DNA of 64,000 nucleotides, taken from contig CALXVV010000002.1 in the NCBI GenBank assembly GCA_944392205.1, positions 20,949-84,948 of the forward strand, written 5' to 3'. The notes below the pieces were generated by a model. It saw only the letters and a list, made by a program, of their open reading frames with translations. It was not told the origin of the DNA and made no database searches. This document shows positions 3,909 to 39,499 of this stretch, piece by piece. Every line of letters starts with the position of its first letter. The first letter of the stretch is position 1. This DNA is from an uncultured Alphaproteobacteria bacterium. Lineage in GTDB: Bacteria; Pseudomonadota; Alphaproteobacteria; RF32; CAG-239. The translations under genes were made by a program, and so were the position numbers.

Positions 3909-4517
3909 ATGAAAAAATGGTTGTTGGCTTTGGTCGGGATTCTTATGGCAACTCAGGCTCGAGCTCAAAGCGCAGAAAACATTAAGAGAATTGAGGCCTA
4001 CCTAAACAATATCAAAAGCTTGGAGGCTACCTTTGTGCAAATGGCCAGCAACGGCGCTACTGCCGAAGGGCGGTTGTTTATTAAAAAACCAAACAAAATT
4101 CGCATGGAATATGCTGACCCGGTTAATGTTTTGATTGTGGGCGATGGCAACTTCATTGTTTATAACGACACCGAGCTTGATCAAGTTACCCATATTGATT
4201 ATGAGGACATTCCGGCCTCTCTTATCTTGGCTAATGACATTAAAATTGATGGCAAAAAAATCAAAGTTGTTGATTTCTACCAGGATTCAGGCTCAACCTC
4301 CATTACTTTAGAATATGCCGACAGCGGCGATCTGGGGCCCATCACCCTGGTATTTTCAAACAGCCCGATGGAGCTTAAACAATGGAAGATTGTTGACCCG
4401 CAAAGTGTTGAGGTGGCCGTTTCTTTGTATGATGCAAAAAAAGATGTGCCTTTGGATGATAAAATATTTAAATTCAAAGAAAAAAAATCTCCCAAAAAAG
4501 GTTATAAAAAGAAATAG
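3909..4517 (+). CDS. lolA: Outer-membrane lipoprotein carrier protein LolA.
   Basis: Signal peptide MKKWLLALVGILMATQARA. About 200 aa periplasmic protein with the LolA-like pattern (LEATF, RLFIKKPNKIRMEY). Confidence 0.75.
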   Translation: MKKWLLALVGILMATQARAQSAENIKRIEAYLNNIKSLEATFVQMASNGATAEGRLFIKKPNKIRMEYADPVNVLIVGDGNFIVYNDTELDQVTHIDYEDIPASLILANDIKIDGKKIKVVDFYQDSGSTSITLEYADSGDLGPITLVFSNSPMELKQWKIVDPQSVEVAVSLYDAKKDVPLDDKIFKFKEKKSPKKGYKKK

Positions 4518-18964: not shown

Positions 18965-20257
18965 ATGGCAAAAAAATTATCTATCATCTTCTTTATTTGT
19001 TTTGGACTATTGTTGGCTGCAGGCTCTGATGCTTGGGCCAAAAAAGAAACAAAGACCTCTGAGAATGAAGATACTTATGAACTGCTGAACTTATTCGGCG
19101 AAGTTATGGAACGCGCCAAAGCGTCTTATGTGGAAGAAGTTGATGATAAAAAACTTATCGAATCCGCCATTAACGGAATGCTCGTTTCTTTAGACCCTCA
19201 CTCAAGCTATCTGGATGAAAAAAGTTTCAAATATATGAATGAGCAAACCAAAGGCAAATTCGGAGGCCTGGGAATCGAAGTTACCATGGAACAAGGTGTG
19301 GTTAAGGTCGTGTCCCCAATCGATGACACTCCGGCCTCAAGAGCCGGCCTGAAACCCGGCGATTATATCACCAACATTGATGGCGAAAACGTTGTCGGCA
19401 TGAGCCTTAATGACGCTGTTGACAAGATGCGCGGCAAACCCGGCTCAAAGGTTAAACTCACCATCCGTCGCGTTAATGAAAAACCTTTTGATGTTACTCT
19501 CAAACGTGAGGAAATTAAAATCCAATCTGTCAAAAGCGACCTCAAGGCTGATGATGTGGCTTATATCCGCGTAACGTCTTTCAGTGAAGATGTTGATAAG
19601 AACATTGAAAAGGCTCTCAAAAAACTTCAGAAGAAAGCTGACGGCAAATTGGCCGGAGTGGTTTTGGATGTTCGCAACAATCCCGGAGGTTTGCTGGAAC
19701 AGGCGGTGGCTGTTTCCGATTTATTCCTAAATCAGGGAGAAATTGTTTCTACCCGTTCACGCAATGCCGAAGACACTATCCGCTACTCTGCGCAAGACGG
19801 CGATATTATCAACGGACTGCCTATCGTTGTTCTGATTAATGACGGGTCTGCTTCTGCCTCTGAGATTGTGGCAGGAGCTTTGCAAGACCATAAACGTGCT
19901 GTGTTGCTAGGTGAAAAATCTTTTGGAAAAGGATCTGTGCAAACCGTTATTCCGCTCGGAAAATATGGAGCAATGAGGTTGACGACGGCTCGTTACTATA
20001 CCCCGTCCGGGCGCTCTATTCAGGCAAAAGGAATCGAGCCAGATGTTGAGGTTCATCCGGCAAAAGTAGAAGAAATTGAGAGTGCTTACAACTTTAGCGA
20101 AGCTGAGTATGGAAATGCTCTGAAAAATGAAAAGGCTGACAGCGAGGCAAAAGATAAAAAAGAAAAAGCGCAAAATGATGATTGGCGTGCCGATTATCAG
20201 TTGTCTCGAGCTGTCGATTTGGTTAAGGCTCTTGCTATCTATAAACCTGCCGAATAG
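18965..20257 (+). CDS. ctpA: Carboxy-terminal processing protease (S41).
   Basis: PDZ domain (GLGIEV, GLKPGDYI) and S41 catalytic region (VVLDVRNNPGG, GSASASEIV, FGKGSVQ). Confidence 0.9.
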   Translation: MAKKLSIIFFICFGLLLAAGSDAWAKKETKTSENEDTYELLNLFGEVMERAKASYVEEVDDKKLIESAINGMLVSLDPHSSYLDEKSFKYMNEQTKGKFGGLGIEVTMEQGVVKVVSPIDDTPASRAGLKPGDYITNIDGENVVGMSLNDAVDKMRGKPGSKVKLTIRRVNEKPFDVTLKREEIKIQSVKSDLKADDVAYIRVTSFSEDVDKNIEKALKKLQKKADGKLAGVVLDVRNNPGGLLEQAVAVSDLFLNQGEIVSTRSRNAEDTIRYSAQDGDIINGLPIVVLINDGSASASEIVAGALQDHKRAVLLGEKSFGKGSVQTVIPLGKYGAMRLTTARYYTPSGRSIQAKGIEPDVEVHPAKVEEIESAYNFSEAEYGNALKNEKADSEAKDKKEKAQNDDWRADYQLSRAVDLVKALAIYKPAE

Positions 20258-23582: not shown

Positions 23583-24389
23583 TTATTCGGCACTTGCCTC
23601 AGCAGCGGCCTTCTTGGAAGCTCTCTTGCGAGCAGGCTTTTTGGCCTCAGCTTCCTCTTTCTCAACCATCTCATCAACCTTTACGCCCTGAGCTGCAATT
23701 TGAGCGGACATACCGTCCAATACAGCTGCAGAAACCAATTCAGAATAAAACTGAATGGCGCGAATGGCATCATCATTACCGGGAACCGGTAAATCTACTG
23801 CCTCCGGATCTGCGTTAGTATCGCAAATGCCAATGACAGGAATACCGAGCTTCTTGGCTTCTTTGATAGCCAAAGATTCTTTGCAGGTATCAATTACAAA
23901 TACCAAATCCGGCTGGCCACCCATGTTCATGATTCCACCAAGCTCTTTGTTGAGTTTCTCTTGCTCTTTTTTGAGATTCAGTTGCTCTTTCTTGGTGTAG
24001 CCTTCATATTCATTCTTCTCGGCCATCTCGTTTAATTTAACAAGGCGAGAAATTGATTTATGAACGGTTTTCCAGTTGGTCAGCATTCCGCCCAACCAAC
24101 GTTGGTTAACATAGTATTGGCCGCATCTCTCGGCATTTTCTTTGATGATGTCTTGAGCCTGACGTTTGGTGGCTACAAACAATACCTTACCGCCGTTGGC
24201 AGCAATCTCACGAGTGGTGGCCAAAGCTGTGTACAGCATCGGGTAAGTCTTTTGCAAGTCAATAATGTGAATATTGTCTTTTTTGCCGTAAATATACGGA
24301 GCCATCTTCGGGTTCCAACGACGAGCGTGGTGACCGAAGTGAACGCCAGCTTCAATCATCTGACGCATTGTAAATGTAGGAAGGGTCAT
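23583..24389 (-). CDS. rpsB: 30S ribosomal protein S2.
   Basis: [29 protein letters not shown]... is the canonical S2 N-terminus. Acidic/Lys-rich C-terminal tail. Confidence 0.95.
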
Positions 24390-24582
24390 TATTTCTTATC
24401 CTTTTCCGGTTAAACCTCCGCAGATCCTCTTGAGCCTTCTTTCCAAGGCACCGGAGCGAAACATCAAAAAAACATCCCGCCAAAATCTGCGTGTGAATTA
24501 TGAATCGGCACCATTGCCAATTCGTGTGCATTTCTATACTTAAATTATTATTTTGGCAAGTATTTTTTTGCCTAAACCGCAC

Positions 24583-28591: not shown

Positions 28592-28667
<76 letters not shown>

Positions 28668-28707: not shown

Positions 28708-28783
28708 GGGGGTATAGCTCAGTTGGGAGAGCGAATGGTTCGCAATCATTAGGTCAGGAGTTCGATCCTCCTTACCTCCACCA
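28708..28783 (+). tRNA. tRNA-Ala (anticodon CGC).
   Basis: Acceptor gggggta/tacctcc with G3:U70, D arm gctc agttggga gagc, anticodon loop ttCGCaa, T arm ggagttcgatcctcc, and encoded CCA. Confidence 0.85.
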
Positions 28784-36659: not shown

Positions 36660-36707
36660 AGCTAAATTTTACTTGAAAATTAGCGCCAATCTGCTAACTA
36701 TACCAAA

Positions 36708-36796
36708 GGAGAGCGGCGGGTTGACCTTTCGCCAACCCGGTCAGGTCCGGAAGGAAGCAGCCGTAACGAATCCGGTTGAGGTCGCTTGCTCTCCAC
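36708..36796 (+). ncRNA. ffs: Signal recognition particle RNA (4.5S RNA, small SRP type).
   Basis: Contains the conserved domain IV motif ggtcaggtccggaaggaagcagcc. The terminal helix ggagagc...gctctcc closes the molecule. Located immediately upstream of dnaX, as in other alphaproteobacteria. Confidence 0.8.
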
Positions 36797-36826
36797 TTTT
36801 TGAACTCTTTCTTGATTGAAGTTTTT

Positions 36827-38551
36827 ATGGCTGAAGATACTCAAAATAAACAAGATTATGTGGTTTTGGCCCGCAAGTATCGCCCCCAGAATTTTAACGA
36901 GCTTCTGGGGCAAGATGCTCTGGTGCAAACCCTTACCAACGCCATAAAAAACAATCGGCTTCACCATGCATATATCCTGACCGGAATCAGAGGTGTGGGT
37001 AAAACCACCACCGCTAGAATTATTGCCAAAGCGCTTAACTGCACAGGCAAAGACGGTCATGGCGGGCCGACAATCAACCCCTGCGGTATTTGCGAAAACT
37101 GCCGCGCCATCTCTGAGTCCAGACATATTGATGTTTTGGAGCTTGATGCTGCATCCAGAACAGGTGTTGATGATATGCGCGAAATCTTAGACGGTGTGCG
37201 CTATAAACCAACTAATGCCCGCTACAAAATATACATCATCGACGAAGTGCACATGCTTTCAAAAAGCGCGTTTAATGCCTTGCTTAAGACTTTGGAAGAG
37301 CCGCCTTCTCATGTTATATTTATCTTTGCCACAACCGAAATTCGCAAAGTGCCCGTTACTGTTTTATCTCGGTGCCAAAGGTTTGACTTGCAGCGGTTGA
37401 CCATTGATACCTTGTTTAACCATTTCAAAAATATTATTGCCAAAGAAGGCTTGAGCGCCGAAGATGAGGCTTTGCGCCTGATTGCCAAAGCTGCCGACGG
37501 CTCTTGCCGTGATGGCTTGTCTCTTTTGGACCAGGCTATATCTTTGGGCGGCGGCGTGGTTAAGACCGATGTCGTTAAAAACATGATCGGTCTTGCTGAT
37601 CGTACTCAAACTTTTGATTTGTTTGAAAAACTTTTGGCCGGTAAAGTTGATGCCGTGGTGCAGAGCTTGGCGGAAATGTATAAAAACGGTGCCACTCCTT
37701 TAACCGTTTTGCAAGATCTGATTAACATTACCCATTTGTTGGCTAAGGTTAAGATTATTCCGGCCTTTGCCAATGATGACAGCCTCTCGGAAAGCGAAAA
37801 AGAGTTTTGTGCCAAAGTGGCGCCAAATGCTCCGATTGCCATTCTTTCTAAAATCTGGCAGATGATGATTAAGGGTTTGTCCGAACTCTCTTTGGCCCCG
37901 GTCCAGATAGACGCGCTTGAGATGATACTCATCAGGATTGCATATTCTGCCAGCTTGCCAACGCCGCTTGAGATTCTCAACGACGTAAAAAAAAAATCTG
38001 AATTAGCCCCAACTATCGGTGTGGCGCCTAAGCCGGTACAGGTTCAGCCTGCCGCAGAGACTTCTCTTGCACCGGCGGAGGTTGCTCCTGAAGGAAAAGG
38101 TTTGGTTTTTAGTTCGCCAGAGGAACTTGCCGCTTATTTGGAATGCTCTAAAAAAGTTTTGCTGGCTTATACTTTTAAGCACGATATCTCTTTTAGCGAA
38201 TTTGCTCCGGGAAAGATGAAAATCACCGCCTCTGATAAAATCAATAATGATTTCTTGCTGAATTTACAAAATATTCTTATTGAGGCAACCGGAAGCAAGT
38301 GGGATATTGAGGTTTTGCGAGGGCACCTGGGCGAAACGATTGCCGACAAAGAAGAAGCCGCCGAAAACGCCAACAAAAAAAGTGTCTCCGACCTACCGCT
38401 GGTCAAGGCTATTTTGGCTGAATTTAAGGGTTCTAAAATTGAGACCCTAACACGCAAAATCAGCTCAACCGATGAAGAAGAGCCTGAAGAAGCAACAAGC
38501 TCGTTTAACAGCTATGATGACAATGATAACTATTTTGATGAGGATTTATAA
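36827..38551 (+). CDS. dnaX: DNA polymerase III subunits tau/gamma.
   Basis: MAEDTQNKQDYVVLARKYRPQNF is the canonical N-terminus. AAA+ clamp-loader motifs (GIRGVGKTT, DEVHMLS, SRC). The track start at 36776 overlaps the SRP RNA. An A10 run at 37987-37996 is noted under findings. Confidence 0.9.
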   Translation: MAEDTQNKQDYVVLARKYRPQNFNELLGQDALVQTLTNAIKNNRLHHAYILTGIRGVGKTTTARIIAKALNCTGKDGHGGPTINPCGICENCRAISESRHIDVLELDAASRTGVDDMREILDGVRYKPTNARYKIYIIDEVHMLSKSAFNALLKTLEEPPSHVIFIFATTEIRKVPVTVLSRCQRFDLQRLTIDTLFNHFKNIIAKEGLSAEDEALRLIAKAADGSCRDGLSLLDQAISLGGGVVKTDVVKNMIGLADRTQTFDLFEKLLAGKVDAVVQSLAEMYKNGATPLTVLQDLINITHLLAKVKIIPAFANDDSLSESEKEFCAKVAPNAPIAILSKIWQMMIKGLSELSLAPVQIDALEMILIRIAYSASLPTPLEILNDVKKKSELAPTIGVAPKPVQVQPAAETSLAPAEVAPEGKGLVFSSPEELAAYLECSKKVLLAYTFKHDISFSEFAPGKMKITASDKINNDFLLNLQNILIEATGSKWDIEVLRGHLGETIADKEEAAENANKKSVSDLPLVKAILAEFKGSKIETLTRKISSTDEEEPEEATSSFNSYDDNDNYFDEDL

Positions 38552-38553
38552 AA

Positions 38554-38874
38554 ATGATGAATATTCAAGGCATTATGAAACAAGCACAAATGATGCAAAA
38601 GAAAATGGAAGAAGAGCAAGCCAAACTTGCGCAGGAAGAAGTTGAAGGATCTTCCGGCGGCGGTATGGTTAAGGTTACCTTAAACGGCAAATTTGAGATG
38701 AAAAAACTCTCTCTGGACAACAGCCTTGTAGATCCTCAGGATGTGGAAGTTTTGGAAGATTTGATTGTGGCTGCCTATAATGATGCCAAAAACAAGGTTG
38801 ATGCCAAAATGCAAGACAGCATGAATGCCTTGAGCGGCGGGCTTAACCTCGGCGGTTTGAAACTTCCGTTCTAG
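38554..38874 (+). CDS. ybaB: Nucleoid-associated protein YbaB/EbfC.
   Basis: 106 aa. MKQAQMMQKKMEEEQAKL N-terminus and GGLNLGGLKLPF C-terminus, typical of YbaB. Conserved position between dnaX and recR. Confidence 0.9.
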   Translation: MMNIQGIMKQAQMMQKKMEEEQAKLAQEEVEGSSGGGMVKVTLNGKFEMKKLSLDNSLVDPQDVEVLEDLIVAAYNDAKNKVDAKMQDSMNALSGGLNLGGLKLPF

Positions 38875-38905: not shown

Positions 38906-39499
38906 ATGGCCGGAAACGAAATTGAAAAACTGGTTAAGCAAATTGCCAAACTGCCCTCTTTAGGTACGCGCTCGGCCAGAAGAATTGTCCTGCATCTGCT
39001 TAAGAAAAAAGAAACATCTCTTTTGCCGTTGATTGAGGCCCTAAACGAGGTGGCAACAAATATTCAAACCTGTGAAATCTGCGGCAACTTTGATACGGTT
39101 TTGCCCTGCTCGGTTTGCACATCAACAACCAGAGATTCTAAAATTCTTTGCGTAGTGCAAGATGTGGCTGATTTGTGGGCAATGGAGCGTGTATCCCAAT
39201 TTAAGGGAAAATATCATGTGCTGGGAGGCGTTTTATCGGCTCTGGAGGGGGTTGTGCCTGAAGACTTGAACATTGAACCTCTTCTTAAAAGAATCGCTTC
39301 TGAGGGCGTGCAGGAGGTTATTTTGGCTCTGCCGGCAACTGTGGATGGGCAAATTACCGCTCACTACCTTTCTTCTCGCCTCAAGGACTTTAATGTTAAG
39401 ATAACAACCCTTGCGCAAGGAATCCCCATGGGAGCCGAGCTGGACTACATGGATGAAGGCACCTTACAACTGGCGCTTAATTCTAGAAAAGCTTTGTAA
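38906..39499 (+). CDS. recR: Recombination protein RecR.
   Basis: HhH N-terminus (LPSLGTRSARRIVLHLL), C4 zinc finger (CEICGNF...CSVC) and Toprim domain. Confidence 0.9.
   Translation: MAGNEIEKLVKQIAKLPSLGTRSARRIVLHLLKKKETSLLPLIEALNEVATNIQTCEICGNFDTVLPCSVCTSTTRDSKILCVVQDVADLWAMERVSQFKGKYHVLGGVLSALEGVVPEDLNIEPLLKRIASEGVQEVILALPATVDGQITAHYLSSRLKDFNVKITTLAQGIPMGAELDYMDEGTLQLALNSRKAL

Follow-up and report, generated by a model that had tools for sequence, protein, structure and literature searches.

The dnaX gene of an uncultured Alphaproteobacteria bacterium, examined within a stretch of 64,000 nucleotides (nt) of contig CALXVV010000002.1 (GenBank assembly GCA_944392205.1; the whole of this stretch is hereafter called the window), contains a run of ten adenines (A10) that is probably a selected, Thermus-type site of programmed transcriptional slippage making gamma, the short form of the clamp-loader subunit DnaX. 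From the comparative sequence evidence presented below, we put the probability of this reading at about 0.7. One dnaX gene would in this way yield two clamp-loader subunits, tau from the uninterrupted frame and gamma through slippage on the A10 tract. RNA polymerase would slip on the rA:dT hybrid of the tract and add or drop A residues, as it does in Thermus thermophilus dnaX, and this is presumed to be the main source of gamma; ribosomes that shift or slide on the same run could add some product. Messenger RNAs (mRNAs) whose A-run departs from ten by a number that is not a multiple of three would be terminated 1–2 codons past the run, giving a gamma-like protein of 390–393 amino acids (aa) and about 43 kDa that retains domains I–III without the linker or the C-terminal domain. 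The known routes to gamma in bacteria are −1 ribosomal frameshifting, transcriptional slippage and proteolysis.

A ten-adenine tract at the end of the shared clamp-loader domains

The product of the gene is DnaX: the AAA+ module, the lid and domain III occur in order and are joined to a tau C-terminal region, and the gene lies in a syntenic ffs-dnaX-ybaB-recR cluster. The Pfam matches run from PF13177 (DNA_pol3_delta2/AAA, aa 29–191) through PF22608 (lid, aa 198–243) to PF12169 and PF12362 (Table 1). The open reading frame (ORF) has its ATG at 36827 and its stop codon at 38549–38551. A program-listed version of the ORF reaches further 5′, to a TTG at 36776, but this extension overlaps the signal recognition particle (SRP) RNA gene ffs, so that ATG 36827 is the real start and the numbering of codons 388–390 in an earlier note on this DNA was right.

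The window reads ACGACGTAAAAAAAAAATCTGAATTAGCCCC at 37980–38010 (or, up to 38008, ACGACGTAAAAAAAAAATCTGAATTAGCC) and has exactly ten A in this interval. In the frame set by ATG 36827 the site is GTA AAA AAA AAA TCT GAA TTA G, that is, V387 K388 K389 K390 S391 E392 L393. The tract starts two residues past the end of the Pfam domain III match and before the tau-only C-terminal domain, in agreement with the earlier note, which had placed the shift right after domain III. That note had also described ten A around codons 388–390, a −1 frame that reads AUC UGA and stops after one residue, and a +1 frame that reads CUG AAU UAG and stops after two, all of which were confirmed (coordinates in Table 1). 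Simulated mRNAs with A11 encode 391 aa (43.1 kDa), those with A9 encode 392 aa and those with A10 encode 574 aa (63.0 kDa), while a change of the run by three keeps the tau frame. The predicted gamma-sized products have masses of 43.1–43.3 kDa, and the A11 product matches the size proposed before for gamma (about 391 of 574 residues, or 0.68, and about 43 kDa). No other homopolymer in the window, whichever strand is read, is as long as the A10 tract, the runner-up having a length of 8, and positions at which both alternative frames stop this close make up 1.1% of the codon boundaries in dnaX and 1.4% of those in all long ORFs of the window.

Homopolymers are prone to sequencing and assembly errors, and a few low-coverage contigs of related loci differ by one A, so that the true length of the tract might be other than ten. 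Against such an error, the same A10 together with an intact 574-aa frame is shared by the window, L081 (95% nt identity) and several further species, as seen in independent NCBI, ENA and Logan assemblies, and the exact DnaX protein of the window is on record from both NCBI and ENA. The independent A10 assemblies with an intact tau frame led us to reject this explanation, which retains next to no probability.

Conservation of the tract at the nucleotide level

Protein relatives were collected as the 120 best matches (72–98% identity) from NCBI, ENA, Logan and JGI assemblies, and a codon alignment was built from the window and nine distinct relatives (10 lineages in total; 69–95% nt identity, locus GC content 35–51%). 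In the 120 homologues the motif [D/G]-[V/L/I]-K-K-[K/N]-S ends the conserved region and is followed by a hypervariable linker; the exceptions are P0101, which has one lysine fewer, and P0100, which has glycine in place of serine. The residue after the serine of the tract is exclusively N, E, K, S or D in the 121 proteins. Codons for these five residues start with AA, GA or AG and therefore, after TCT, create TAA, TGA or TAG in the −1 frame.

At the DNA level, the 10 lineages carry either GTA AAA AAA AAA TCT (A10) or [G/T]TA AAA AAA AAC TCT (A9), and in all of them both alternative frames stop within 1–4 codons, the +1 stop being kept in the relatives by TTA followed by A or G, or by an equivalent stop. 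A single codon is kept at only 17 of the 304 degenerate columns with an invariant amino acid, yet T followed by nine A is invariant, and with 10 nt it exceeds every other invariant stretch in the gene, the next reaching 5 nt. The serine after the tract is always encoded by TCT and represents the sole single-codon column among 12 invariant serine columns. Replacements of the preceding valine by leucine or isoleucine use TTA or ATA and leave the A-run whole; the retention of an NTA codon when the amino acid changes thus preserves the run. Judged by these synonymous sites, the A-run is under purifying selection at the nucleotide level. The earlier note had raised the question of whether the run and the closely following alternative-frame stops are conserved, and both are kept in every close relative examined, through differing nucleotide solutions.

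A larger set of loci was obtained by scanning metagenomes with a degenerate pattern for the peptide DALEMILIR, which lies about 20 codons 5′ of the site and is as an anchor uninformative on the tract itself. The scan returned 83 loci, three of which were unrelated, while L106 stops short of the site and L147 is a relative with A6 only; the remaining loci fall into distinct contexts, of which 41 have A9 or A10, two have A11 and two have A8, plus the single contig L101, in which 7 nt are deleted at the tract. Without exception, the 41 A9/A10 contexts have a stop in each alternative frame no more than seven codons on, and mostly within 1–3. The sequences that make these stops are diverse and include TCT GAA TTA G, TCT AAT TTA A, TCT AGC TTA G, TCT AAC CTA G, TCT AGC CGG ATA A, TCA AAA CTG A, CCA CTA ACT GA and CGT TGA. 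Since the stops are built from many different sequences, the dual-stop feature is maintained and not simply passed down. Moreover, 87 of the 99 A/T runs of at least nine in 638 kb of clade DNA are the dnaX site itself, and at least 7 of the 12 others sit further 3′ within dnaX, which implies that runs of this length are avoided elsewhere in clade DNA. Avoidance of A/T runs in bacterial coding regions, and in many bacterial genomes, typically sets in at a length of nine.

The scan also revealed a second tandem A10 cassette in the dnaX linker of some lineages, positioned about 26 codons after the first in L108, L125, L131 and L158, and about 15 codons after it in L153. This second cassette reads GAA AAA AAA AAT AGT AAT TTA, encodes the peptide EKKNSNL (similar to VKKNSNL of the first cassette) and has stops in both alternative frames; in L132 (coverage 1.6x) the second tandem tract is A11. 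L147 (MDTB01017380.1, locus GC 30%), which reads ATA TTA AAA AAC GAT AGA, is the nearest relative in the scan that is devoid of the tract, and is a candidate marker of the phylogenetic boundary of the trait.

The run could also be devoid of any recoding function, a by-product of a lysine-rich hinge (V-K-K-K/N-S) combined with a preference for AAA, with the slipped products representing tolerated noise that is curtailed by the nearby stops. The hinge peptide is conserved, AAA accounts for 70% of lysine codons in the window, and 5 of the 22 invariant lysine columns of dnaX use AAA throughout, including three outside the tract. However, codon bias leaves unexplained the invariant wobble base of GTA, TTA or ATA (GTA makes up 17% of valine codons), as well as the invariant TCT (30% of serine codons) and TTA (16% of leucine codons). 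Nor does it explain the restriction to N, E, K, S or D or the dual-frame stops made by different sequences in 41 contexts, and the near absence of runs of at least nine from the rest of the clade DNA, the second cassette of the same design in some lineages and the dependence of an A11 lineage on slippage for tau (described below) all speak against it. A run without function is accordingly considered very unlikely.

An A11 lineage that encodes gamma in the zero frame

The tract varies in length within one related species of the human gut, in which the site has the context SVKKKSESGT. Seven contigs of this species (L095, L098, L105, L117, L145, L152 and L173) carry A10, and six contigs from different assemblies (L093, L103, L128, L135, L136 and L154) carry A11. 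Five of the A11 contigs differ from one another by 0–3 single-nucleotide polymorphisms (SNPs) over the 1.0–2.4 kb compared, and L136 differs from these five by 0–13 SNPs over 0.5–1.6 kb (up to about 0.8%). The A11 group is about 1.5% divergent from the seven A10 contigs, and tract length segregates perfectly with haplotype. In the A11 contigs the zero frame ends with SVKKKI followed by a stop, i.e. it encodes gamma, and the tau frame past the tract remains intact over 190 codons up to the normal stop, with 11 synonymous versus 3 nonsynonymous differences from an A10 strain. Tau is the essential form of DnaX, and A11 strains must therefore obtain it from mRNAs that have lost one A or gained two, or else by a +1 or −2 ribosomal move; given this direction, a −1 frameshift cannot supply tau there. 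The A11 lineage is natural genetic evidence, of an indirect kind, that slippage at the tract is efficient.

Heritable replication slippage between A10 and A11 could in principle make the tract a contingency locus, at which the subunit encoded in the zero frame is switched at the DNA level. Both alleles do occur within one species, each on its own haplotype, and single contigs of other species have one A more or fewer (L112, L130 and L132). On the other hand, 41 of 45 in-clade contexts have tau in frame, the singleton variants that lie on low-coverage contigs could be errors, and a pure on/off switch of an essential protein would not be viable without slippage during expression. Hence a contingency switch, which we regard as improbable in its own right, would add to transcriptional slippage and not replace it. 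A further reading is that the slippage site serves in addition as a heritable tuning knob, by which the change between A10 (tau in frame, gamma from slippage) and A11 (gamma in frame, tau from slippage) within a species resets the tau:gamma ratio; this is offered tentatively, as something that may well not hold.

Several single contigs deviate in other ways. L101, which comes from a co-assembly, has a 7-nt deletion that takes part of the run; L130 (0.97x coverage) has A8 with a frameshift; L099 has A8 and stays in frame through an A/C swap; and L112 has A11 on a contig of 219 kb. These four tracts could be either real variants or assembly errors. Two short members of the protein cluster, P0283 and P0288, were considered as possible gamma-frame alleles and were rejected, being merely N-terminally truncated fragments.

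Absence of ribosomal stimulators of the Escherichia coli type

In E. coli dnaX, frameshifting takes place at A_AAA_AAG with the aid of an upstream Shine-Dalgarno (SD)-like element, located about 10 nt 5′ of the site, and a 3′ stem-loop. No GGAG or AGGA was found in the 30 nt upstream of the tract in the 10 lineages. ViennaRNA folds of the 45 and 70 nt downstream were no better than those of dinucleotide shuffles (z = −1.7 to +1.2; 10 lineages), the predicted folds differ between lineages, and RNAalifold returned 0 pairs for 18 lineages. The stimulatory hairpin envisaged in the earlier note was accordingly not found with either program. There was likewise no Rfam match at the site at the gathering threshold in a search of the window, or at E ≤ 10 in a search of 37850–38150, and none of the lineages has AAG at the site. 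Premature transcription termination as an alternative source of a shortened product was rejected, no hairpin with a T-run being associated with the tract.

These observations bear on translational recoding, in which ribosomes would undergo −1 tandem slippage on A_AAA_AAA or A_AAA_AAC, or slide on AAA codons, and then meet the nearby stops to produce gamma. Slippery heptamers are in phase in every lineage (A_AAA_AAA, or A_AAA_AAC in the A9 lineages), the −1 frame meets its stop after a single codon, like that of E. coli, AAA repeats cause ribosome sliding in E. coli (PMC4363877), and the bare E. coli dnaX site shifts at about 14–16% in vitro without stimulators. However, besides the lack of an SD-like element, a conserved hairpin and an Rfam match, A_AAA_AAA and A_AAA_AAC are much less shift-prone in E. 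coli than A_AAA_AAG. A heptamer needs 6–7 A, whereas the run is held at 9–10 and includes the wobble base of the preceding V/L/I codon; the conserved stop in the +1 frame is not needed by −1 frameshifting; and the A11 lineage cannot reach tau by a −1 shift. Translational recoding as the source of gamma is for these reasons deemed unlikely, though it is the strongest of the competing explanations. By contrast, RNA polymerase slipping in both directions would account for stops kept in both alternative frames and for a run held at nine or more, and the length of 9–10, the conserved +1 stop and the A11 lineage together make slippage by RNA polymerase a better fit than a heptamer-based ribosomal shift. 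The earlier proposal of a tau/gamma slippage site, on either the E. coli or the Thermus model, is supported by the conservation data; of the two models, the Thermus type is favored, the stimulators that define the E. coli site being absent.

Comparison with known dnaX recoding systems

The closest counterpart is dnaX of Thermus thermophilus, in which slippage was reported by Larsen et al. in 2000 (as described in PMC1088944 and PMC5009743). In Thermus dnaX both non-zero frames stop after an A9 run, and gamma is made from mRNAs with 8, 10, 11 or 13 A (PMC1088944, PMC5009743). Both systems have a single tau ORF, a sense-strand run of at least nine A past the shared clamp-loader domains and close stops in both non-zero frames, so that every slip by other than a multiple of three gives gamma, with no ribosomal stimulators required. 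They differ in that Thermus belongs to Deinococcus-Thermus and its A9 is followed by G (Figure S3 of PMC3711429), whereas the A10 or A9 runs of the putative alphaproteobacterial system are followed by T or C and come from gut and rumen metagenomes. The site shares with E. coli dnaX the gene, the relative position (0.68 versus 0.67), an A-rich heptamer in the same phase and a −1 frame that stops after one codon. It departs from the E. coli site in lacking AAG at the A-site codon, an SD-like element, a conserved hairpin and an Rfam match; its +1-frame stop is also conserved, and its run is longer than a heptamer needs.

A third arrangement is the two-ORF dnaX with A7–A10, in which tau needs recoding; it is described for Chlorobi, Bacteroidetes and Verrucomicrobia by Antonov et al. 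2013 (PMC3711429). These genes likewise have a poly-A run at the gamma/tau junction, for which transcriptional realignment was proposed, and their architecture is shared by the A11 lineage (L093 and five others) and by L065 (A12, see below). In contrast, the dnaX of the window is one continuous ORF with tau in frame. In the accessible part of that source, Alphaproteobacteria are absent from the nine poly-A taxa of Figure S3 and from the three named Chlorobi.

Distribution within Alphaproteobacteria

An outgroup of 80 distant alphaproteobacterial dnaX loci (36–58% identity), obtained from a whole-protein contig scan, had no comparable long A-run in dnaX in 78 cases; the exceptions are L056 and L065. 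L056 (a Marinicaulis sp. metagenome-assembled genome, MAG; locus GC 56%) has an A9 run around position 4172, in GCC TTA AAA AAA AAC CGT GAA, at the homologous end of domain III. At this LKKN site the −1 frame stops after one codon and one added A gives LKKKP-stop, and the tract probably represents a separate occurrence of this device. L065 (Paracoccaceae MAG LRMED-264, locus GC 37%) has an A12 run around position 4310, at the end of the linker and further 3′ than the tract of the window. Its zero frame stops two codons after the run (ELEKKKS-stop), with the tau C-terminal domain encoded further on in a different frame (KKKKLEISSFEEILELIKEEKNF...). This alphaproteobacterium has the two-ORF dnaX layout of Antonov 2013.

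Alignment of 150 representatives of 50%-identity clusters with MAFFT identified KK[K/N] at the aligned position in 8 of the 150. Three of these eight (L176, L177 and L178; 44–54% identity) were looked up at the DNA level, and all have A9 or A10. On the sequences sampled, the device occurs throughout one large clade from gut and rumen and has a patchy distribution in the rest of the class. The literature searched yielded no account of dnaX slippage in Alphaproteobacteria, and Caulobacter is the only alphaproteobacterium for which it describes a mechanism for making gamma.

Points that weigh against transcriptional slippage

Several observations count against a slippage site of the Thermus type. 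Gamma of Caulobacter crescentus results from partial proteolysis of tau by ClpXP (Vass and Chien; PMC5009743, bioRxiv 10.1101/2022.11.10.516041). The organism belongs to the same class and the outcome, a DnaX without its C-terminal part, is the same, but that route is post-translational and does not depend on a slippery sequence. The A_AAA_AAA and A_AAA_AAC heptamers lie in phase within the tract, and iterated AAA codons can make ribosomes slide, as seen in the E. coli work cited above. The K-K-K/N-S peptide is conserved in the protein and could have a role of its own. In two of the three distant loci L176, L177 and L178, one alternative frame stays open for 12–19 codons. Some AT-rich bacteria may have RNA polymerases that resist slippage, and the A11 lineage is known from metagenome assemblies, not from isolates.

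Gene neighborhood and other features of the window

The features of the dnaX locus are listed in Table 1. Elsewhere in the window, a full-length match to Rickettsia sRNA47 (RF02800) lies at 19670–19974 (−) with 65.4 bits against a gathering score of 60; the genome is not that of a Rickettsia, and the match may represent a conserved alphaproteobacterial element or a coding sequence. An rpsB leader/small RNA match (RF01815, 43.8 bits) lies at 24389–24495 (−), and two adjacent transfer RNA genes are found at 28592–28664 (+) and 28708–28780 (+). No ribosomal RNA gene was found in the 64 kb.

Table 1. Coordinates of the features of the dnaX locus (window numbering)
Feature	Position	Strand	Basis and remarks
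ffs (SRP RNA gene)	36705..36800	+	Rfam RF00169, 63.2 bits against a gathering score of 40; directly 5′ of dnaX
dnaX coding sequence	36827..38551	+	574 aa, 63.0 kDa, zero-frame tau-like DnaX; ORF list, Pfam, 120 homologues at 72–98% identity
Clamp-loader domain III, aa 246–385	37562..37981	+	PF12169, E = 1.6e-38, profile positions 2–141 of 143; last part common to tau and predicted gamma
A10 tract (third base of GTA plus AAA AAA AAA, codons 387–390)	37987..37996	+	Sequence; T plus A9 invariant in 10 lineages
Hypervariable linker, aa 391–429, tau only	37997..38113	+	Protein alignment; no conserved RNA structure
TGA, −1 frame (mRNA with one or four extra A)	37999..38001	+	Frame reads ATC TGA; predicted product ends VKKKI, 391 aa
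TAG, +1 frame (mRNA with one A fewer or two extra)	38004..38006	+	Frame reads CTG AAT TAG; predicted product ends VKKNLN, 392 aa
Tau-specific C-terminal domain, aa 430–539	38114..38443	+	PF12362 (alphaproteobacterial tau C-terminal family), E = 4.8e-18; missing from predicted gamma
ybaB, conserved downstream neighbor	38554..38874	+	ORF; PF02575 in syntenic relatives
recR, conserved downstream neighbor	38906..39499	+	ORF; RecR Pfam families in syntenic relatives

Implications

It is still an open question why DnaX is kept in two forms in bacteria (bioRxiv 10.1101/2022.11.10.516041). A Thermus-like poly-A cassette that is under strong selection at the nucleotide level in a broad clade of uncultured Alphaproteobacteria of the gut and rumen, and that is present in scattered other lineages of the class, would represent an independent convergence on making gamma, and would strengthen the case for the functional importance of this subunit. 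Annotation will take the A11 alleles for pseudogenes, or for dnaX genes that are split or truncated, though they are probably functional, and the coexistence of A10 and A11 may serve as a natural experiment on the efficiency of slippage that is required for an essential protein. Should the tract also act as a heritable tuning knob, a genomic change of a single base would determine which of the essential replisome subunits is made by recoding, the second tandem cassettes of some lineages would shift the tau:gamma ratio further, and slippage would have to be efficient enough to supply an essential protein. The species in which both alleles are found would then provide a natural, within-species case of a reversal of roles that is set out in general terms by Atkins et al. 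(PMC5009743).

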